A stretch of 64,000 bases of DNA, taken from a bacterium (GTDB lineage Bacteria; Fidelibacterota; UBA2242). The stretch lies in the NCBI GenBank assembly GCA_018824205.1, contig JAHJGX010000058.1, positions 54,366-118,365 on the forward strand, written 5' to 3'. Positions 36,255 to 49,300 of the stretch are shown here, piece after piece; the stretch's first letter is position 1, and every line of letters begins with the position of its first letter. The notes beneath the pieces were generated by a model that was not told where the DNA came from, ran no database searches, and saw only the letters and a list, made by a program, of their open reading frames with translations. The translations under genes and the position numbers were made by a program.

Positions 36255-38654
36255 ATGGAAGGAATGAACGGACAGGGTCAGAGGCCGGTGGATTTTCAGG
36301 AAAACGAAGTATCCCTGCAGGACTATTTACGAATCATTTTCCGGGGCCGCTGGATCATTGGTATCTCCTTTATCCTGATTATGACGGCCACGGTCTACTA
36401 TACTTTTACGGCCGCGCCGGAGTATGAATCCTCAACTTTGCTGATGCTGGCCGGGCGTCAGGGACAGACCTCGACGCTGTTCCAGAATCCCTTCATGATG
36501 GGCAATTACATGAAGGTCAACAACGAGATCGAAGTGCTCAAGAGCGACTACCTCAGCCGCCGGGTGGTTCAGCGCATGAAACAGTCCGCCTTTGCCGACA
36601 GCCTCTATATCCTGGGTACCCGGAAGTACCAGCAGAAAGGGGTCAGTCTCACCGATGTGATGGGCGCCGCCAAGTCCGGAATCAAGCGCCTGCTCCTGGG
36701 AGCTCCGGAGGAGGAACTGGCCGTAGTTGACAGTCTGGATCGGGCGATCGTCCGGGCCATCAAGGCTTCCATGACCGTGGAACCGATCCGGGATACCGAG
36801 GCCATTCGTCTGAAAATCAGTTCCATCGATCCCTATGAAGCCGCCTTCCTGGCCAACCTGATTGCCGATGAATACCTGCGTCTCGATGAGGAGTTTAACC
36901 TGGGTGAAGTAGTGGAGATGAAGGACTTTCTGGAGGAGCAGCTGGAGGACATTGAAAAAGATTTGACCGAATCCGAGGAGGCCCTGACGGAATTTCAAAA
37001 ACGGACCGGGGTCTATGTGCTGGATGAAACGGCCCAGACCCTGATCGATCAGCTCTCCACCTTTGAAGCCATCTATTACACCTCCCTGGCGGAATTGCAG
37101 GTCTCCCGGCAGAAACTGAAAAACCAGCAGGAGATGCTCAACGAACGGGAGAAGTGGATCGTCGATGAGGCGATTAATACCACCAATCCCCTGATTACCC
37201 AGCTGCGCAATGCCATTGCTGAAATCGAAGGGGAAAAAATAACCGTCATGATCGTCCAGGGCCTGGATCCCAAACACGAAGCCATCCGGGAGATGGACAA
37301 ACGTGGTGTAGAATTGAAAGCCAGGCTTTTCAAAGAGGCCCAGAATCTGACCAATTTAGGTCTGTCGCCCCAGGAACAGTCCCAGATTTCCCTGGAGCTG
37401 CTGCGCAATGTCCTGTTCAGCACCGTTGATATTATTGCTTTAGAGAGCAAGGGCAACGAATACAAGAAGCTGGTGGACCAATACAATAGCCGCTTGAACG
37501 AGCTGCCCGAACGCAGTCTGGAATTTGCCCGGCTGGACCGGGAGCGCCAGGTCAATGAAAAGTACTACATCCTGATGAAGACTAAATACCAGGAATCCCG
37601 CATCACCGAAGCCAGCAAGATCAGCAATATCCGCATTGTAGACCCGGCGACCCCTCCGGAAAAACCGATCAAGCCCAAAAAGAAAATGAACCTGCTGCTG
37701 GGGATGTTCATGGGTATTGGTCTGGGCGTGGGAATTGCCTTTGTGAAAGAGTATATGGACCACTCGGTACGCAGCAGCGAAGATCTGGACAAGCTGGGTT
37801 TGACGACGATATCCATTGTGCCGAAGATCGATATTAAGAGTTCCATGGAAAAGACGCGACAGGCCGCCGGTAAGATGGATGAAGAGGAGTATACCCTGAA
37901 ATCCAGGATGATCTCCCACTACGATCCCAAGTCCACAGTGGCCGAGGCCTACCGGACCCTGCGCACCAATATCCAGTTTATGAACCCTGATAAACCCTTC
38001 AGCAGCCTGGTGGTCTCCAGCGCCGGTCCCGGCGACGGCAAATCCACCACCGTGGTGAACATGGCCATCACCTTTGCCAACCTGGAGAAAAAAGTGCTGC
38101 TGATCGACGCGGATTTGCGGAAACCCGTGCTGCACAAGGTCTTTGAGCTGCCCCGGGCTCCGGGCTTGACCCAGCGTCTGGTCCAGGATTTGAATGACCA
38201 GGATGTGATCCGGGAAACCGAGGTGCCAAACCTCTACCTGGTAACCTGCGGGGATCTCCCGCCGAATCCCTCAGAACTACTAGCCAGCCAAAAACTCAAG
38301 GATTTTATAGTCCGGATGAAGGAAAAGTTTGATATCGTACTGATTGACTCACCGCCGATTATCGCGGTCACCGACGCCAGTATTCTGTCCAAGATGACCG
38401 ACGCCATTCTGCTGGTGGTCAAGGCCGGTAGTACGGATCTCCGGGTGCTGCGGCGCTCCATCGATCTGCTGAAACAGGTCAATACCAACCTAATCGGCGC
38501 GGTGCTCAACGGCGTCAATATCTCCAGTGGTTACGATTCCTATTACTACTACTATCACTACTATTACTATTATGCCGATACCGGCGAGAAGAAAAAGAGC
38601 GATAAAAAAGCCCGCCGGAAAAAACCCCGGCTGATTGATAAACTGCGCGGTTAA
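36255..38654 (+). CDS. polysaccharide biosynthesis tyrosine autokinase (Wzc/BY-kinase: Wzz chain-length domain + P-loop kinase + C-terminal Tyr cluster)
   Basis: N-terminal Wzz-like periplasmic domain flanked by 2 TM helices. Cytoplasmic Walker A (SAGPGDGKST), Walker A' and B, and a C-terminal Tyr-rich tail (YDSYYYYYHYYYYY). Confidence 0.8.
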   Translation: MEGMNGQGQRPVDFQENEVSLQDYLRIIFRGRWIIGISFILIMTATVYYTFTAAPEYESSTLLMLAGRQGQTSTLFQNPFMMGNYMKVNNEIEVLKSDYLSRRVVQRMKQSAFADSLYILGTRKYQQKGVSLTDVMGAAKSGIKRLLLGAPEEELAVVDSLDRAIVRAIKASMTVEPIRDTEAIRLKISSIDPYEAAFLANLIADEYLRLDEEFNLGEVVEMKDFLEEQLEDIEKDLTESEEALTEFQKRTGVYVLDETAQTLIDQLSTFEAIYYTSLAELQVSRQKLKNQQEMLNEREKWIVDEAINTTNPLITQLRNAIAEIEGEKITVMIVQGLDPKHEAIREMDKRGVELKARLFKEAQNLTNLGLSPQEQSQISLELLRNVLFSTVDIIALESKGNEYKKLVDQYNSRLNELPERSLEFARLDRERQVNEKYYILMKTKYQESRITEASKISNIRIVDPATPPEKPIKPKKKMNLLLGMFMGIGLGVGIAFVKEYMDHSVRSSEDLDKLGLTTISIVPKIDIKSSMEKTRQAAGKMDEEEYTLKSRMISHYDPKSTVAEAYRTLRTNIQFMNPDKPFSSLVVSSAGPGDGKSTTVVNMAITFANLEKKVLLIDADLRKPVLHKVFELPRAPGLTQRLVQDLNDQDVIRETEVPNLYLVTCGDLPPNPSELLASQKLKDFIVRMKEKFDIVLIDSPPIIAVTDASILSKMTDAILLVVKAGSTDLRVLRRSIDLLKQVNTNLIGAVLNGVNISSGYDSYYYYYHYYYYYADTGEKKKSDKKARRKKPRLIDKLRG
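38532..38573 (+). repeat. poly-tyrosine coding tract (13 Tyr among 14 codons, TAY repeats) at the Wzc C-terminus
   Basis: tat/tac codon run tactactactatcactactattactattat. Confidence 0.8.
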
Positions 38655-38742
38655 TTGCCCTTGACCTGCCTGTATCCGGCGGCTGCCGGACAGACAGGGC
38701 GGGACCGCCGCAGGAACAGGTAAAACTATTAATTCCGAGACT

Positions 38743-39528
38743 ATGCTGGAATTCGATCAGATATATCACCAGGATTGCATTGCCGGGATGCCGCAGATGC
38801 TGGATAATTGCATTGACCTGATTGTCACCGATCCCCCCTTTGCCATCGATTTCAAAGCAGTGCGGGGAAACTATAATCGAAAGGCTTCCCGGGTGTTGGA
38901 GGGATACAATGAAATCACAAAAGCGGATTATTCCGGGTTTACGGTCAGTTGGCTGGAGCAGGCCTGGCGCATTCTGAAACCTACGGGCAGTATGTACGTA
39001 TTTTCCGGCTGGAACAACCTCAAGGATATTCTGGTGGCCCTGGATGAGATCGGTTTTATCACCATCAATCACATTATCTGGAAATATCAGTTCGGAGTGG
39101 TGACCCGGCGAAAATATGTCAGTTCCCACTACCATTGTCTTTACGTCTGTAAGGACGATAAACTGCGCCCCTTTTACCCCTTTTCCCGCTATCAGAAGGA
39201 TGACCGGGACAGCGCCGGCCGCAGTCAGCATTACCGTGACAAAGAGGACGTCTGGACGATCAAGCGGGAGTACTGGGCCGGTGATCAAAAAACCCCCACC
39301 AAACTGCCCCGGGAACTGATTGAGAAAATTTTGAACTATTCCAGCATCCCGGGGGATCTGGTTTGTGACCCCTTTCTCGGCTCGGGCCAGGTGGCCTTTA
39401 TCAGCCGCCTGATGCAGCGCCGCTATATCGGTTTTGAGATTAATAAAGAATACTACGATTTTGCTAAAGCCCGCCTGGACAGCGGCCAGTATCGTCTTAA
39501 AACGACCGATCAGGGAAATCCATTTTAG
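38743..39528 (+). CDS. site-specific DNA methyltransferase, beta-class N6A/N4C type (N6_N4_Mtase family)
   Basis: Catalytic motif IV DPPF near the N-terminus, and SAM-binding motif I (FLGSGQ) near the C-terminus. This is the beta-class order. 261 aa. Confidence 0.8.
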   Translation: MLEFDQIYHQDCIAGMPQMLDNCIDLIVTDPPFAIDFKAVRGNYNRKASRVLEGYNEITKADYSGFTVSWLEQAWRILKPTGSMYVFSGWNNLKDILVALDEIGFITINHIIWKYQFGVVTRRKYVSSHYHCLYVCKDDKLRPFYPFSRYQKDDRDSAGRSQHYRDKEDVWTIKREYWAGDQKTPTKLPRELIEKILNYSSIPGDLVCDPFLGSGQVAFISRLMQRRYIGFEINKEYYDFAKARLDSGQYRLKTTDQGNPF

Positions 39529-39536
39529 TTTTAACA

Positions 39537-40520
39537 ATGGCAATACTATACAGTAGCAAGTGCCGGGACCGGCGACAGATTCTGGAATCCTTTTATCCTT
39601 TCACGAAACCCGCTGTGATTGAAGGGCTGATTATCGGCAATGATCTCGACGCTCTGCTGTCGGCGGCCCTGCTGAAGCAGCGCTACGGCTGGGATGTGGT
39701 GGCGGTTTACGACTATCGGAAACTCTGGGTGGACCAAAGGATTGCTGACAATGTGATTCAAAAACTGAAAAGCGGCGTCTATCTGGCTGTGGACCTGGAT
39801 ATCTACCGCAACGCTGTCCCCAGTATCGGTCATCATATTCTGCAACTCACTGAAAAAGACCGTCTGGAACAGCACGAGCAGACCCTGAATCCCAATCTCA
39901 TTTTCGGCGTGGACTGCCGGAATTTCCGGGCCAAGTATCCCCTGGGAACCATCCATTTTCTGCGCTGGCTCTTTGAAATGGAACTGGATCGCCGGGGCGA
40001 GCTGCTCTGCTGGCTGGCGGATTCCGCCTATATCAATGCCCAGAGCCATCGCTTTCGGGAAAATGTGTCCCATTGGCTCTACGAGTTCTTTGACTGGCCC
40101 CCTTTCTGGGAAATTTTCATCCTGCTGGATTCTGCGGATTATGAGGAACTGTTGGTCCGGGAGATTGGCCGGACTCTGGACAAGATCCTGATCACACCCC
40201 GGCCGGGACAGGTCAAATCCCGGCATAAATCCCTGAACGGCTGGCAGTGCCAGTGGTCGGATCCGGGAACCCAGGGGGAACAAATCCGGCAAATATTTGC
40301 CTTTATTCACGAACTCAGCGGCTGGCGGATTCCGGAATTGCCCAAGTTCTACAGCTGTATTACAGGCCAGCGGAAACGGATTAGCGTGGCGGAACTCCTG
40401 AAAGACTACGGAAGCCTGGATGAATTCCTAAATCGCGAGCATGTTTTTTCATATGCCTTTACCCATGCGCAGCTGCTGAATTATACTCAGTTTTCATCGT
40501 CTCCGGCCGGTAAAACCTAA
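39537..40520 (+). CDS. hypothetical protein (327 aa) immediately downstream of the DNA methyltransferase. Candidate cognate restriction endonuclease or specificity partner (no recognizable motif).
   Basis: Long ORF with coding-like composition. 8 nt downstream of the MTase stop on the same strand. Confidence 0.3.
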   Translation: MAILYSSKCRDRRQILESFYPFTKPAVIEGLIIGNDLDALLSAALLKQRYGWDVVAVYDYRKLWVDQRIADNVIQKLKSGVYLAVDLDIYRNAVPSIGHHILQLTEKDRLEQHEQTLNPNLIFGVDCRNFRAKYPLGTIHFLRWLFEMELDRRGELLCWLADSAYINAQSHRFRENVSHWLYEFFDWPPFWEIFILLDSADYEELLVREIGRTLDKILITPRPGQVKSRHKSLNGWQCQWSDPGTQGEQIRQIFAFIHELSGWRIPELPKFYSCITGQRKRISVAELLKDYGSLDEFLNREHVFSYAFTHAQLLNYTQFSSSPAGKT

Positions 40521-40674
40521 AAACGTGCACTTTTTGGGGATTTCCAGTGACAATTATCACCGTGAATGATGGATTTTCGTTTATATTTAACAATGTATGA
40601 ATGGGTCTATAATCAATCGCAAGAAGAACCAAGAAAACAGACGTATATATTTAATTCCCTTGAAAGGGGGTACT

Positions 40675-42807
40675 ATGAACAATTTTAAAGTGTCGATTTT
40701 AGTCGTTTTGTGTGTCGGATTGCTCGGTTCGCTGGCCCTGGCCGGACAGCACGACTATCCCAACTTCCCGCTGCACAACTGGGTCATGGTTGGTTTTCCG
40801 GTCACACCCACGGAGCAGAATCCCGATGCGGTCTGGGGGCCTTTTTTCGGCGGCAACCAGGGCAATGACAACGATGCTGATAATACGCTCTGGCGTTTTT
40901 CCCGTTGGCTGGCCCAGTACGACACCTATATCCGCTGGGGTGAATTAGACCGTGACACAGTCGGTGTTTTGACCGATTTTGGTGAACCCACCGCCATCAT
41001 CCCCGGCTGGGGTTACTGGTTCTATCAGAATCAGTTCAGTGATGTGACGTTTAATGTCAATGGGACCGAAGCCGACGACAGTGGTCCTTATTATATTCCC
41101 ATTGATCCGCCCCAGAACGGGCATCGCGGCCGTACCATGGTGGGCAACCCGTTTACCTTTCCCATTGACTGGAAAAATACCGAAGTGGTCATCGAGTCCG
41201 AAGAGATTGACACAGTGGTTTCTTTGATTGCGGCCAACGAGATGGGCCTGATCGATCAACATGCCTATCCCTGGAATGCGGGTCTGATGAACGGCGACAT
41301 CAACACCTATATCCCTCTGAATGCAACTGATGGTGGCGCGGTTCCGAAATGGCAGGGATTTTGGGTCGAACAACTCAATGAAAATGTAAATTATTACATC
41401 AAGTATAAGGTTGAACACACTCAGGGCGATGACAACTGCAAGTATCATGATGCCCATTCCGGTCATGTCAGTGAGAAAGATTATCTCGGTCAGGATGGCA
41501 TCCGTGAAACTGATCTCTTTACCATGGTGGTTGAAGATCCCAATGAGATCATTATAGTATCAACCCAGGCTCAGGGTTTTTCCAATGACGGCAGTTTCCA
41601 TTGGCCGGATCAGACCTATTTTCTGAACAATCAGGGCTTTGGCATTGAATTCATCAGCATGACTGTCGGGGCCGAGTATACTACCTATGAATTTACCGTA
41701 ACCGCGGAAGTTGACGACCCCAATTTTAAACAACGCATGATGCACGTCCACTTCTTCTTTGGGGATAACTCCAACGTGGTTTATCCGGCCACACCCAACC
41801 ATGGCAATGATGAACCCGGCAATGATGACAATCGCGGGAAGAACGATAATGGTAATGCCGCTGAGATTACGATCCTGCGGTCCACTGAAACAGTGGTCGG
41901 CCAGTCAACGAATGTTACGCTGCAACTCAAAGTACCACCCACGACTGTGGGCCTGGCCAAAGCGGCCGCTAAAGTAAGTCCGCGAGATGTGGTGGAAACC
42001 GTCAGCGACCGGGATTGGGTTATTCCGATGAGCATTGCCACAAGCGACGGCACCGTGAAGGACAACTTTAATGCGATTGGTGTTCTACAGGCTGCCTCCG
42101 ACGGTTACGATACTCATGATATTGCCCAGTGGACCCCCCAGGGAACATTCCTGGAAATCTATTTTCCTCACGATGACGTCAGCAAACCGCTGCATTACTG
42201 GTATGAAAAACCCAGCAGTGTCTGTTATGACATGCGGGCCGATTCGACCCACAAAGACTGGATTATGCGGGTTGCGGCCTATACCGATGTTGTAAGTCCT
42301 TTGTCAGTCCGTAATAAAACGGTGACCATCCGCTGGGATGCTTCCGAAGTCAATGCTGACTGGGAACTGCAGCTCCAGGCGGCCGATTATACCGTTCTGG
42401 TTGAGGATATGAAAACCGTCAGCGAATATACCTTTACCACGGCAGATAATAACTACAGCGTTCAGGATTTTGTTATTATGACGACATTTACACCGAACCT
42501 GAACAGTATTGAAGCACCACCGGTGGCGGAGACCTATGCTTTGCTGCAGAACTATCCCAACCCCTTTAACCCGACCACGACCATTCAGTATCGGATAACT
42601 CGGAACGAATGGGTACAACTGGCGATCTATAACCTGCAGGGTGAACTGGTAAAAACCCTCTGGTCCGGCGATAAATCAACCGGCGATTATCAGGTCCAAT
42701 GGAATGGGACCGATAATCAGGGACGGCCAGTGGCCAGCGGGGTCTATCTGACAAAACTGCTGACGCCGACAATGGCCCGTTCGAATAAAATGTTGTTACT
42801 TAAATAA
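40675..42807 (+). CDS. large secreted protein with a T9SS (Por) C-terminal sorting domain. Paralog 1, function unknown.
   Basis: Signal peptide (MNNFKVSILVVLCVGLLGSLALAG). C-terminal ~80 aa match the T9SS CTD pattern (NYPNPFNPTTTIQY...VYLTKL...). The start was reset to ATG 40675 with AAAGGGGG upstream. Confidence 0.7.
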   Translation: MNNFKVSILVVLCVGLLGSLALAGQHDYPNFPLHNWVMVGFPVTPTEQNPDAVWGPFFGGNQGNDNDADNTLWRFSRWLAQYDTYIRWGELDRDTVGVLTDFGEPTAIIPGWGYWFYQNQFSDVTFNVNGTEADDSGPYYIPIDPPQNGHRGRTMVGNPFTFPIDWKNTEVVIESEEIDTVVSLIAANEMGLIDQHAYPWNAGLMNGDINTYIPLNATDGGAVPKWQGFWVEQLNENVNYYIKYKVEHTQGDDNCKYHDAHSGHVSEKDYLGQDGIRETDLFTMVVEDPNEIIIVSTQAQGFSNDGSFHWPDQTYFLNNQGFGIEFISMTVGAEYTTYEFTVTAEVDDPNFKQRMMHVHFFFGDNSNVVYPATPNHGNDEPGNDDNRGKNDNGNAAEITILRSTETVVGQSTNVTLQLKVPPTTVGLAKAAAKVSPRDVVETVSDRDWVIPMSIATSDGTVKDNFNAIGVLQAASDGYDTHDIAQWTPQGTFLEIYFPHDDVSKPLHYWYEKPSSVCYDMRADSTHKDWIMRVAAYTDVVSPLSVRNKTVTIRWDASEVNADWELQLQAADYTVLVEDMKTVSEYTFTTADNNYSVQDFVIMTTFTPNLNSIEAPPVAETYALLQNYPNPFNPTTTIQYRITRNEWVQLAIYNLQGELVKTLWSGDKSTGDYQVQWNGTDNQGRPVASGVYLTKLLTPTMARSNKMLLLK

Positions 42808-42841
42808 TTAATTGAAATCTAATAACATAAAGGAATTTGTT

Positions 42842-42979
42842 ATGAAAGAGAAAATCTTAGAAAACGAAAAAGTCGATGTGAAAATTGAGTATGATGCGCC
42901 GCGTATTATTCAGAAGAGAGAAATCGTGATTGAATTGCAGACCAATTATATTCCCGATGAACCGCCGCCTCCTATGTGA
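42842..42979 (+). CDS. small ORF (45 aa) encoding a candidate RiPP precursor peptide with a lasso-type leader motif (YxxPRI...LQTN) and a variable C-terminal core (YIPDEPPPPM)
   Basis: Not in the ORF track (under 60 aa). ATG preceded by AAGGA and a 7-nt spacer. Shares motif Y-x2-P-R-I-x2-K-x4-I-[DE]-[LI]-Q-T-N at identical spacing with the second small ORF at 45460. Confidence 0.45.
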   Translation: MKEKILENEKVDVKIEYDAPRIIQKREIVIELQTNYIPDEPPPPM

Positions 42980-43038
42980 GAATAGTTGGGATTAATGAGA
43001 CATATTCAAATCATGAAACCTATGAAAGTGAGAATAAT

Positions 43039-45441
43039 ATGAAAACGAGAACATTTTTAACAATGACAGCAATCGGCGTGATGCTTCTGTCCGGTCTGGC
43101 ATTATCCCAGCAGACCATCACTTATGAGAATTTTCCGAAAGCCAAGATGATGCTGATCGGAATTCCGCTGAATTTTACGGACAGTGATCCGGGCGCAGTA
43201 CTGGAACCAGAGTTTGGCGAGCAAATCAGAGATGGTAGTATCTATCCCTACTGGCGCTTTTCCCGCTGGGATATTGGCGACCACACTTATTACCGCTATG
43301 GCGAAATGGAATTTACCTGGGATCACGATGCACAGAATTATAAGCCTGCAACAGAAAAGACCGAGCAGGGCAGTCCCCATGCCATTGAACCGGGCTATGG
43401 CTACTGGCTGGCCCAGAGTTCGGGCAATACTGTGGACACTTTATCGCTTACCGGTATACCCGCTGATCAAGATGCGCCGGTTTATGTGCCCGTTGATCCG
43501 CCGGAAACAGTTCAGGGACATGCCTATCCCGGAATCACCATGGTGTCGAATCCATTTCTGTATACCATTGACTGGGTAAATGCCTATTACCGGATAAATA
43601 GTGGCGATGAAGTCACGCTGGAGCAGGCCGTCAATATGGGATTGGTGTCCCAATATGCCTATCCCTGGGACGGCGCTCAGTACACTCCTTTTAATATGAC
43701 CGATGGAGGAAATCTGAAGATCTGGGACGGTTACTGGGTGGAACAGCTGAATCCCGAACCGACCGAATATGTGGTCTATGATGTGGCCTGTGACATTGAA
43801 AGCAGCGAAGGCGGCGGCGGGGAGTGCGGCGAATGTGACGGACAGGTTTCCTATCTGAAACTGCTATACAACGGTATTTATGACAATGCCAAGATTAAGG
43901 TTTATGATAACAAAAGTAATAAACTGTACTATGGTACTGTCCAAAAGGGCGGTGAATTTGAGTTTAGCGGAAAGCAGGGCGGCGAGCGGATGGGCCCGAA
44001 AATTAAGATTTACATCAGTAATGCCGATAAATGCAGCGGCTGCGGCGAAAATTTTTGTGAAATCCATACCAGCTGTTCCGTACCCATTGGAATTGGTCAG
44101 GTATGGGGGCCGTTTACCATTACCGCAGGCGCAAGCCGCAACGGCGGGGCTTTATGCCCGATCGGTGAAACCAATAAACCGATTATCAAATTTTATGATG
44201 CCGAAGTCAATGGTTCGGACAGCGATCTGGGCGAAGGCGGCGTGATTGAAACCGACCGGTTCATTATTTCCCTTTACAATGATGATGACGGTGAACTGTC
44301 TTTTAAAACCTTTACCGTGAACGATGATTCCTCAGCCTGGATTGCGCTGACTCAGGAGGGCACGGCCGTGTCCGATGGCCAGGGATTTACTGTCACTTTG
44401 ATCAGTGAATCCGAAGGCACCTATACCATTGATGTAGCCAGTACTGGATCTGCGGTATTGGAGGCAGTCAAGTTCCGTTTTGGCGATGATCAGACTCTTG
44501 ATTCACCGGAATGCGGCGAAACCTTTACTTCGACCCGGCAACTACTGGGCGGTGTACAGGTTTCAACACTTGAATTGAAAACCCCACCCACCAATGTGGG
44601 CGGTGGAAAACTGGCAAAGTCATCAGAAAAAATTCCTCATCCTTTGAAATCCGAATCGGTTGCCGAATGGATAGTACCAATAAGCGTGAGTAGCAGCAGC
44701 GGTGAACTGATCGATAGTTACAACGGCTTTGGCGTCAAAGAGGGCGCTTCGGCCACATTTGACCTGCTAGATGCCCGTAACTTTACGCCCAATCTGGATG
44801 CCTGGGTAGATATCTACTTCCCCCATCACAAAGAAAATGATCCGCTGAATTACTGGCCGCAAAAACCGATGAAAGCCGCCTATGATGTACGTCCGGAAGC
44901 CGATGTTATCTCCTGGGATATGGAAATGTCTTATGTTAATGCCGGCAGCCAGAAGTTTACGATCAACTGGGATGCCAGTCAATTCCCGGCGGATCTGGAA
45001 CTGACGTTTGTTGATTTTAGCACCGATGAACGAATTGATATGCTGACAGTTTCGGAATATGCGGTGACCACGCCGGCGGATCCCTACGGTACGCTTTATT
45101 TTGCCGTAGTGGCCGCTCTGCCCGAAGAGGCCGTTGGAATTGATCGTGATATCACCAAACCGGCGGAATTCCGTCTGCTGGCGAATTACCCGAATCCGTT
45201 CAATGCGACGACGCGACTTCTGTACACATTGCCGGAAGCTGCACAGGTAAAACTGACAATCTATAACCTGAACGGAACTTTGGTGAATACTCTGGTGAAT
45301 GGAATACAGCCGGCCGGTTATTACGGAATGGATTGGGATGGCCACGATCAGAGCGGCGCAATGGTCAGCACCGGCGTCTATATCTACCGGCTCCAGGCCA
45401 ATGGCCAGGTATCAACCCGCAAAATGCTACTAATGAAGTAA
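43039..45441 (+). CDS. large secreted protein with a T9SS C-terminal sorting domain. Paralog 2, function unknown.
   Basis: Signal peptide (MKTRTFLTMTAIGVMLLSGLALSQQ) and C-terminal T9SS CTD (NYPNPFNATTRLLY...VYIYRL...). Shares several conserved blocks with paralog 1 (NPF.[FY][TP]IDW, AYPW, YW[VE]EQLN, YFPH..x.PL.YW.[EQ]KP). Confidence 0.7.
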   Translation: MKTRTFLTMTAIGVMLLSGLALSQQTITYENFPKAKMMLIGIPLNFTDSDPGAVLEPEFGEQIRDGSIYPYWRFSRWDIGDHTYYRYGEMEFTWDHDAQNYKPATEKTEQGSPHAIEPGYGYWLAQSSGNTVDTLSLTGIPADQDAPVYVPVDPPETVQGHAYPGITMVSNPFLYTIDWVNAYYRINSGDEVTLEQAVNMGLVSQYAYPWDGAQYTPFNMTDGGNLKIWDGYWVEQLNPEPTEYVVYDVACDIESSEGGGGECGECDGQVSYLKLLYNGIYDNAKIKVYDNKSNKLYYGTVQKGGEFEFSGKQGGERMGPKIKIYISNADKCSGCGENFCEIHTSCSVPIGIGQVWGPFTITAGASRNGGALCPIGETNKPIIKFYDAEVNGSDSDLGEGGVIETDRFIISLYNDDDGELSFKTFTVNDDSSAWIALTQEGTAVSDGQGFTVTLISESEGTYTIDVASTGSAVLEAVKFRFGDDQTLDSPECGETFTSTRQLLGGVQVSTLELKTPPTNVGGGKLAKSSEKIPHPLKSESVAEWIVPISVSSSSGELIDSYNGFGVKEGASATFDLLDARNFTPNLDAWVDIYFPHHKENDPLNYWPQKPMKAAYDVRPEADVISWDMEMSYVNAGSQKFTINWDASQFPADLELTFVDFSTDERIDMLTVSEYAVTTPADPYGTLYFAVVAALPEEAVGIDRDITKPAEFRLLANYPNPFNATTRLLYTLPEAAQVKLTIYNLNGTLVNTLVNGIQPAGYYGMDWDGHDQSGAMVSTGVYIYRLQANGQVSTRKMLLMK

Positions 45442-48445: not shown

Positions 48446-48598
48446 ATTTTCTTTGCATTTCTAAAAAAATCAATTTAAATCAAATAACTAACGGGCAAGT
48501 TCTATAAAGAGGTTTCGAGGTGCTTAAACAGTGAGTTTGAGCAGTTCCTTGAAACCTTAGATTATAGCCCCTATGCAAATAGGAGTATGGAGGGGATT

Positions 48599-48757
48599 AT
48601 GGTTCATCGTAAATGCCCCCGTTGCGGGGCGCAGCAGTTTCGCAAAGTGCGCCGCAAACGCTGGATGTGTTATCTGCCCTTTTCAAGCTGCTGGGAATGT
48701 TACTGTAAATTTCTGCTGGTGTTTGGGATTATTGTCTGGCGGCACAATTATACCTGA
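48599..48757 (+). CDS. possible small Cys-rich zinc-ribbon/TM protein (52 aa: MVHRKCPRCGAQQFRKVRRKRWMCYLPFSSCWECYCKFLLVFGIIVWRHNYT)
   Basis: Alternative frame to the ORF-track 48573-48782 ORF. CPRCG...C..C.C arrangement plus a hydrophobic tail. GGAGGGG lies 5 nt upstream. Confidence 0.2.
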   Translation: MVHRKCPRCGAQQFRKVRRKRWMCYLPFSSCWECYCKFLLVFGIIVWRHNYT

Positions 48758-49300
48758 TGCCGGGATTTTGGAAACACCGTAATGTGACGGAAATTACAGA
48801 TATTGGTACTGAACATTTGGAAAGAATCTAACTATGCGCGGGGAGACTGTTTAATTAATATGAAGAAGATATTGGAATTGTTTATTTTACTTAGCAATGC
48901 CGGCGATTTATTGCCGCTACTATAGTCTTCGTAAATAGTGCAAATATTATTGCGAAAACCGCATATTATTAGTAACATAAGCACAGATTGTAGAGACTTG
49001 AAACGGGATTCATTTATTGATATTTTTTTTACTCCGATCTAATATAAATTATTGAAGATTCCCTTTGGGATATGACGAAAAAGATTTGGACATTCGGTAA
49101 AATCGCGGCATTGAATAACGCCTTTAACGGAGATGTATTATCAGGTGATTTTTATCACTGGATTTAAATAAAAATAAGTAGAAATTATAGGTTCTACAAT
49201 TTGCCCGCTCAGCCCATGTAGCTGAGGGGGCGAAGCCCTGCCCCGGCGGATGCAATTCCCCGGCCGGAAAAATGCGTAAGTAATTAATAATAGGAAAGAT

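Follow-up and report, generated by a model that had tools for sequence, protein, structure and literature searches.

We focus here on a stretch of DNA of 64,000 nt from a Fidelibacterota bacterium (contig JAHJGX010000058.1), referred to as the window, with all coordinates counted from its first letter, and in particular on two adjoining genes within it, one encoding a DNA methyltransferase (MTase) and the other a protein of an unannotated family, which we call the partner. The two genes are separated by a short spacer with the letters TTTTAACA, flanked by the TAG stop codon of the MTase gene and the ATG of the partner gene. Promoter and terminator scans found no promoter-like or terminator-like site in this gap, and the two genes probably form a co-transcribed two-gene operon. 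Both open reading frames (ORFs), their sizes, their 8-nt spacing and their shared direction are present exactly as the initial annotation of this DNA had given them. The genes and their features are as follows.

38743-39528, forward strand: MTase gene, 261 aa, a beta-class PF01555 DNA amino-methyltransferase of the DPPF type (N6-adenine-like motif IV)
38830-38841, forward strand: MTase motif IV, DPPF (aa 30-33), read from the sequence
39373-39390, forward strand: MTase motif I, FLGSGQ (aa 211-216), the S-adenosylmethionine-binding loop, read from the sequence
39529-39536, forward strand: intergenic spacer of 8 nt between MTase and partner
39537-40520, forward strand: partner gene, 327 aa, member of an unannotated family with a predicted DHH-like N-terminal domain and a family-specific C-terminal domain
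39537-40121, forward strand: predicted N-terminal DHH-like (RecJ/Cdc45-like) phosphoesterase domain, aa 1-195, boundary approximate
39636-39653, forward strand: GNDLDA (aa 34-39), candidate equivalent of DHH motif I, with invariant D36 and D38, following the strand 30-33 and falling on RecJ D81/D83
39789-39806, forward strand: VDLDIY (aa 85-90), candidate equivalent of DHH motif II, with invariant D86 and D88, following the strand 82-85, V85-D86 falling on RecJ V-D137
39828-39842, forward strand: GHHIL (aa 98-102), candidate equivalent of DHH motif III, with an invariant G98 in place of D and invariant H99 and H100 falling on RecJ H161/H162
39885-39950, forward strand: LNPNL...KYPLGT (aa 117-138), with invariant NPN and KYP, resembling the AIINPN...FPSKSLAG that follows motif III in RecJ
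40011-40025, forward strand: WLADS (aa 159-163), candidate motif IV of uncertain assignment, with invariant W159, D162 and S163
40122-40517, forward strand: C-terminal domain, aa 196-327, with conserved S228, Q237, P269, R279, F304, S305 and N315 and no GGGH

The match of the MTase to PF01555 (N6_N4_Mtase) takes in positions 1-220 of the 221 in the profile (E = 8.1e-42, 144.1 bits against a cut-off of 26.7), and the PADLOC model MTase_II also matches (best E = 5.9e-70). Its nearest solved structure is that of CcrM (6pbd, E = 6e-26), and DpnA, M.MboIIA and M.RsrI also match. Motif IV precedes motif I, which places the enzyme in the beta class; the full-length PF01555 match and this order of DPPF before FLGSGQ bear out the class first proposed for it. 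Judged from its sequence, the MTase is a genuine and ordinary member of a known family and most likely modifies adenine at N6. The ratio of nonsynonymous to synonymous substitution rates (dN/dS) is 0.09-0.11 relative to its relatives, of which the nearest on plasmids are at most 31% identical. It represents a very conserved subfamily that crosses domains and, at E <= 1e-40, takes in more than 3,885 clusters; copies that are 66-70% identical occur in Thermoplasmata, Methanosarcinales, Leptospiraceae, Hydrogenedentes, Firmicutes, Acidobacteria and bacteria of the candidate phyla radiation. Restriction-site avoidance in the window is uninformative on the target of the MTase: the depletion is confined to CTAG, where it is strong (observed-to-expected ratio 0.28, z -7.4) but of a kind common in bacteria, and to CGCG, where it is moderate (ratio 0.54), and GATC and GANTC are at expectation. 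Work on the Marinimicrobia methylome describes CTAG and CTCC motifs in other metagenome-assembled genomes (MAGs), one methylating CTAG, with no tie to this MTase (PMC8919816).

The partner has no match in Pfam, NCBIfam, PADLOC or PHROGs, including none to PF01368 (DHH) at E <= 0.1 in Pfam, and neither its single sequence (best E = 1.7) nor its family profile finds anything among the PDB sequences; the earlier description of a 327-aa ORF of no recognisable family thus holds. It does have relatives of its own. A word-indexed search gave 217 matches and an exhaustive profile search 778 representatives at 50% clustering, 427 of them with E <= 1e-10, nearly all stand-alone proteins of ~300-340 aa and none annotated. 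An alignment of 32 of these sequences, 36-84% identical, contains 33 invariant columns, which include GND36LD38, VD86LD88, G98H99H100, N118PN120, K133YP135 and W159..D162S163. The partner dN/dS relative to its relatives is 0.12-0.22, and both genes of the pair are under purifying selection.

A model of the partner built with AlphaFold2 from the family alignment is of high confidence (predicted local distance difference test 93.3, predicted template modelling score 0.92), and its top Foldseek match is a DHH phosphatase acting on adenosine 3',5'-bisphosphate (pAp) (8a8k, E = 2.1e-4). On the strength of this model, it is well supported that the N-terminal domain adopts the fold of DHH phosphoesterases, a parallel β-sheet with helices on its flanks (PMC11229311). 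The RecJ/Cdc45/GAN nucleases are the branch it most resembles, the assignment being a remote one. The C-terminal domain searched alone gives no match to DHHA1, DHHA2 or any other structure. The PD-(D/E)xK, HNH and GIY-YIG folds were considered for the partner and rejected, no such fold appearing among the significant structural matches. The segment VDLDIYRN, once put forward as D/E-x-K-like, instead follows a β-strand at the position of DHH motif II, with D86 and D88 invariant.

In the partner, the invariant acidic and His residues come in the order known for the metal ligands of DHH enzymes, and in the model they stand directly behind β-strands. For an NrnA-like enzyme, these ligands are H34, D38, D40, D95, H121 and D171, with H122 orienting the phosphate (PMC11229311), and the roles of the two motif III His residues are known from PMC4081065 and PMC11229311. 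The partner appears to keep DxD, D and HH as candidate ligands of metal and phosphate. It lacks the His that stands four residues ahead of motif I (H34 in DrRecJ-like) and the motif III Asp, a position at which the substitution D134A inactivates an NrnA homologue (PMC4081065); D88 might compensate for the latter. D162 stands at roughly the spacing expected for motif IV and starts a helix in the model, and RecJ D236 falls on N167, five residues off. A greedy hhalign path of 153 columns, co-linear and non-significant, places the DHH motifs on one path and LNPN on the VNP segment of RecJ, and the non-significant hhalign runs against E. coli RecJ and a RecJ profile pick the same short NPN/KYP segment. 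The greedy alignment is a consistency check and not proof of DHH homology. A homology search with RecJ itself gave, among the 120 matches listed, only enterobacterial RecJ proteins at least 90% identical.

The link between the partner and DNA methylases is real, as seen from recurrent adjacency and from one fusion. Adjacency was counted in the 57 species-level loci that have 1.5 kb or more of sequence on each side of the partner: in 26 of them (46%) a PF01555-type MTase directly adjoins it, and the other 31 have no adjacent PF01555-like MTase, a count that covers the neighbours within each locus. The linked MTases fall into three subfamilies, the DPPF type of the window (~261-269 aa), a DPPY type (~317-348 aa, 43-48% identical) and an SPPY type (~292-305 aa, 25% identical), the SPPY motif being typical of N4-cytosine enzymes. 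They sit upstream or downstream of the partner, co-directional or convergent, and the pairs occur in Fidelibacterota, Chloroflexota, Bacteroidota, Ignavibacteriales, Methanoregula and Thermoplasmata. One natural fusion protein of 623 aa (P0193, L092:6001-7872) joins a partner domain to an MTase of the SPPY type (PF01555, E = 1.5e-37); its gene occupies the middle of a contig of 33 kb. On the partner tree, genes linked to each of the three MTase classes and genes without an MTase are intermixed, and MTases have therefore been gained, lost and exchanged repeatedly. The flanks of 20 non-syntenic pairs are heterogeneous: their 138 proteins hold 213 Pfam families, each confined to three loci or fewer, and the most frequent families of these 138 neighbours include none of integrases, transposases or defence proteins.

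The surroundings of the fusion gene contain ATP-sulfurylase, adenosine 5'-phosphosulfate (APS) kinase, GFO/IDH/MocA, a hexapeptide acetyltransferase, an aldo-keto reductase, a DegT aminotransferase, a glycosyltransferase of family 2 (GT2) and PMT_2. Wzc in the window, PMT_2 at a further locus (L010) and this sugar, sulfation and polysaccharide cluster round the fusion hinted at a cell-envelope context. Polysaccharide or glycosylation genes as the functional context of the pair were unsupported in the 20 other loci, where GT2 was found in just three of the 138 neighbours.

Solitary partner genes are also a stable feature of some lineages. In Saprospiraceae/Lewinellaceae, 11 of 11 partner loci are without an adjacent MTase, and many Anaerolineae also keep the partner alone. 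The solitary partners of Saprospiraceae/Lewinellaceae and other Bacteroidota MAGs have a conserved synteny of their own, with one and the same AstE-like gene downstream in eight genomes and TerB-DnaJ upstream in five.

The MTase likewise has a life apart from the partner. Its close relatives without a partner either carry a different co-directional ORF of 220 aa or are orphans in a synteny with helicase and TatA-like genes. The former, unannotated and of ~220 aa, occupies the position directly 3' of the MTase at 23 metagenome loci (among L100-L167) that have no other neighbours in common; one example is given here.

L105:1761-2426, forward strand: ~220-aa ORF, found 3' of 65-70%-identical copies of the window-type MTase

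The consensus of this ORF has FD....PWDFKaH, which fits a PD-(D/E)xK signature, and no Pfam or NCBIfam match was found for it. It is probably the true Type II restriction endonuclease (REase) partner of the window-type subfamily in mobile contexts. That it might be a diverged form of the partner was considered and ruled out (hhalign probability 0.1%). The orphan synteny comprises ~26 loci (including L114, L121, L127, L135, L136, L141, L148, L150-L152, L154, L158, L164-L166 and L170-L172) and has a divergent upstream helicase of the MrfA type (DEAD/Helicase_C/MZB = DUF1998, ~840 aa) and, downstream, a TatA-like gene followed by major facilitator superfamily (MFS), P-II or UbiE genes. This conserved pairing of MTase and helicase might be functional. 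As a separate observation, L134 has a second PF01555 MTase of 445 aa (L134:5764-7098, forward strand), two genes 3' of the window-type MTase, with a weak staphylococcal-nuclease-like (SNase) match at its C-terminus, and may be another MTase-nuclease fusion.

Immediately 5' of the MTase gene in the window lies a gene for a Wzc-type BY-kinase (PF02706/PF13807/PF13614). The 3' side of the pair is occupied by two large secreted proteins with a C-terminal sorting domain of the type IX secretion system (T9SS), recognised by FlgD_ig and a weak match to Por_Secre_tail.

40597-42807: T9SS cargo protein, 736 aa, signal-like N-terminus and C-terminal FlgD_ig/T9SS sorting domain
42976-45441: T9SS cargo protein, 821 aa, signal-like N-terminus and C-terminal FlgD_ig/T9SS sorting domain

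The initial annotation had placed the pair between wzc and T9SS genes, and had the upstream gene right; the downstream genes encode cargo and not secretion machinery. Relatives of both cargo proteins are found 3' of the MTase-partner pair in several Fidelibacterota genomes. Counting one genome per species, the order Wzc-MTase-partner is found in at least 11 species-level Fidelibacterota loci, seven of which also have the full FtsK-LolA-LPGtm-Wzc block, often with T9SS cargo genes downstream. The identities to the window proteins in these loci are 29-75% for LolA, 47-66% for LPGtm, 62-82% for Wzc, 66-76% for the MTase and 43-62% for the partner. The pair has thus been passed on vertically, in a fixed place, over the whole span in which these housekeeping genes diverged. 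Partner relatives are absent from IMG/VR, from 72,556 plasmids and from 50,697 phage genomes, and there is no discontinuity in GC content across the pair. In a Fidelibacterota (Marinimicrobia) clade, the pair belongs to the core genome, where it is inherited vertically and maintained by selection. The proposal that it represents an acquired defence island is contradicted by the conserved synteny, the purifying selection and the lack of plasmid, phage or viral relatives of the partner.

Several further features of the window can be recorded. An antisense ORF of 342 aa (38515-39543, reverse strand) covers the whole MTase gene and another of 254 aa (39546-40310, reverse strand) overlaps the partner; both are almost certainly spurious shadow ORFs, because the genes on the forward strand show strong homology and purifying selection. 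Rfam and tRNA scans gave nothing relevant in or near the locus. GC content dips to 0.39 at 42750-43250, in the gap between the T9SS cargo genes and the start of the second, and to 0.37-0.41 at 48500-49250, in a gap between ORFs of at least 180 aa, compared with a window mean of 0.51.

Taken together, we are highly confident of the descriptive picture, namely a DHH-fold family that is linked to MTases, is vertically inherited and is not a classical REase. As an explanation of the whole, we favour an operon in which the DNA MTase and its DHH-fold partner act as a coupled module, a reading that we hold tentatively and at a little short of an even chance; that the mechanism is that of an MTase-coupled DNA nuclease is possible and slightly less assured. 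In such a mechanism, the partner would act on DNA as a phosphodiesterase dependent on Mn2+/Mg2+, and its substrate would probably be single-stranded or nicked DNA or DNA ends, as for RecJ. It would have little sequence specificity of its own, and its action would be directed or licensed by the adjacent MTase, either through physical association, which the fusion implies, or through the methylation state of the DNA. The result would be a restriction-modification (R-M)-like or methyl-directed DNA-processing module, with the MTase providing recognition and self-marking and the DHH protein hydrolysis, a logic that may be compared to Type IIG and Type III enzymes or to Dam-directed repair. Since the family is kept alone in other lineages, the partner must, if so, have an MTase-independent activity too. 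A wider generalization, which we consider doubtful, is that the partner family, as RecJ/Cdc45-like hydrolases of DHH fold, would supply the nuclease of a so far unrecognised class of systems that target DNA in a methylation-coupled way. Interchangeable beta-class MTases, separate or fused, would recruit or license it, and it would constitute either a new restriction nuclease fold or a nuclease of methyl-directed repair or processing that has entered the core genome in Fidelibacterota.

A number of observations weigh against the coupled nuclease module. The partner is missing beside 62 of 67 close MTase relatives in metagenome loci with enough flanking sequence; it is also inherited alone with the residues at the catalytic positions intact; and the hhalign comparisons are non-significant, with probabilities of 2.8% for E. 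coli RecJ and 0.7% for a profile of 12 RecJ/DHH sequences. Alternatively, the partner would be a housekeeping DHH phosphoesterase for nucleotides or oligonucleotides, of the nanoRNase, pAp phosphatase or cyclic-dinucleotide phosphodiesterase type and without a part in anything like restriction. It would stand next to an orphan, epigenetic or cell-cycle MTase, and the linkage would reflect co-regulation or a metabolic connection rather than a joint action on DNA. The solitary partners in the conserved synteny, in Saprospiraceae/Lewinellaceae and in many Anaerolineae, and flanking genes that are housekeeping everywhere, agree with this explanation, as does the pAp phosphatase as the best Foldseek match. 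The neighbours of the fusion gene include ATP-sulfurylase and APS kinase, and the 3'-phosphoadenosine 5'-phosphosulfate (PAPS) pathway of these enzymes yields pAp; the MTase subfamily, very conserved across phyla, also occurs as an orphan between the MrfA-like helicase and the TatA-like gene. We regard this housekeeping explanation as unlikely, if far from negligible; how the partner differs from the characterised enzymes of these types is considered below.

Considerably less probable, and in our view quite unlikely, is a classical Type II R-M system in which the partner is a sequence-specific endonuclease cutting the unmethylated site of the MTase and would be the first REase of DHH-like fold. 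An MTase with an adjoining uncharacterised ORF, in variable order and orientation and in one case fused, is typical of R-M systems; the distribution of the partner is patchy and crosses domains; and the same MTase subfamily is elsewhere paired with the 220-aa PD-(D/E)xK-like ORF (FD...DFK) in all-different flanks, much like a mobile R-M system. On the other hand, no known REase fold is among the significant structural matches of the partner, and roughly one in two partner genes stands alone and is stably inherited, as would not be expected of a toxic REase. Between MTase classes that probably differ in target base (DPPF/DPPY versus SPPY), the partners are 33-38% identical and the MTases 25%, and MTase classes have been swapped within partner lineages. 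A conserved partner with exchanged MTases is the opposite of the expectation and thus counts against the partner reading the same sequence as the MTase. Deep vertical synteny, the lack of defence or mobile neighbours and the lack of plasmid, phage or viral copies also speak against a Type II system, as do, on the side of the MTase, its very conserved cross-domain subfamily and the 62 of 67 close relatives that have no partner. The DHH nucleases characterised to date act as exonucleases, and their substrates are single strands or short oligonucleotides (PMC11229311). The initial annotation was thus right to treat MTase and partner as a pair, which recurrent adjacency and the fusion support, and less so in its expectation of an R-M pair, given a partner that has no REase fold, is often solitary and is vertically inherited. 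Finally, the partner could have lost hydrolysis, as eukaryotic Cdc45 has, and serve as a non-catalytic scaffold, an adaptor tethering the MTase to the replication or repair machinery. The acidic and His residues of motifs I, II and III are invariant across phyla in solitary and MTase-linked partners alike, indicating a conserved rather than a degenerate site, and we consider this scaffold role very improbable.

If the partner is indeed an MTase-coupled DNA hydrolase, DHH would be the sixth fold among the nuclease architectures used with DNA methylation, and a function would be at hand for an unannotated family of ~780 clusters (at 50% identity) in bacteria and archaea. Fidelibacterota are among the most abundant uncultured marine phyla, and there the pair would make a candidate methylation-dependent pathway spanning the lineage, akin to Dam/MutH or CcrM. 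Vertical conservation as deep as this points to a housekeeping role, epigenetic or in DNA processing, rather than to transient defence against phages. The partner family is small and soluble-looking, and its predicted active-site residues are open to mutagenesis. Even the conservative reading would give the DHH superfamily a new branch, one whose C-terminal domain is unlike any solved structure.

How, then, does this pair compare with known systems? The MTase-partner association itself is solid, and our full-text search of the literature turned up no report of it: neither a restriction enzyme of DHH fold nor a module of MTase and DHH protein is described there. The partner constitutes a new unannotated family and, in its predicted structure, a variant of the DHH superfamily. 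Relative to RecJ, archaeal RecJ-GAN and Cdc45, it has no significant sequence-profile similarity, carries GHH in place of DHH and lacks a DHHA1 domain, a GGGH motif and an oligonucleotide-binding (OB) fold. It is much smaller than E. coli RecJ (327 versus 577 aa), with a C-terminal domain that has no structural match, and is tied to DNA methyltransferases, a tie not described for RecJ or Cdc45 in the literature searched. In comparison with NrnA, pAp phosphatase and GdpP, it lacks the subfamily-defining DHHA1 fold and GGGH substrate-binding motif as well as the motif I His ligand. The pair resembles Type II R-M systems with small beta-class MTases (M.MboIIA, M.RsrI, DpnA and the CcrM/HinfI type) in its full-length PF01555 MTase, its tightly linked second gene and the variable order of the two. 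Unlike in those systems, the partner belongs to none of the REase folds checked (PD-(D/E)xK, HNH, GIY-YIG, phospholipase D (PLD) and half-pipe), is often solitary, is vertically inherited in a housekeeping context and is more conserved than its MTases. Type IIG and Type III enzymes, on the other hand, have a helicase or translocase and PD-(D/E)xK, both absent here, where the MTase is minimal (261 aa) and the nuclease role is a putative one. What the pair shares with them, as an analogy of logic only, is a conserved nuclease-like part that is combined with interchangeable MTases and, in P0193, joined to one in a single chain.

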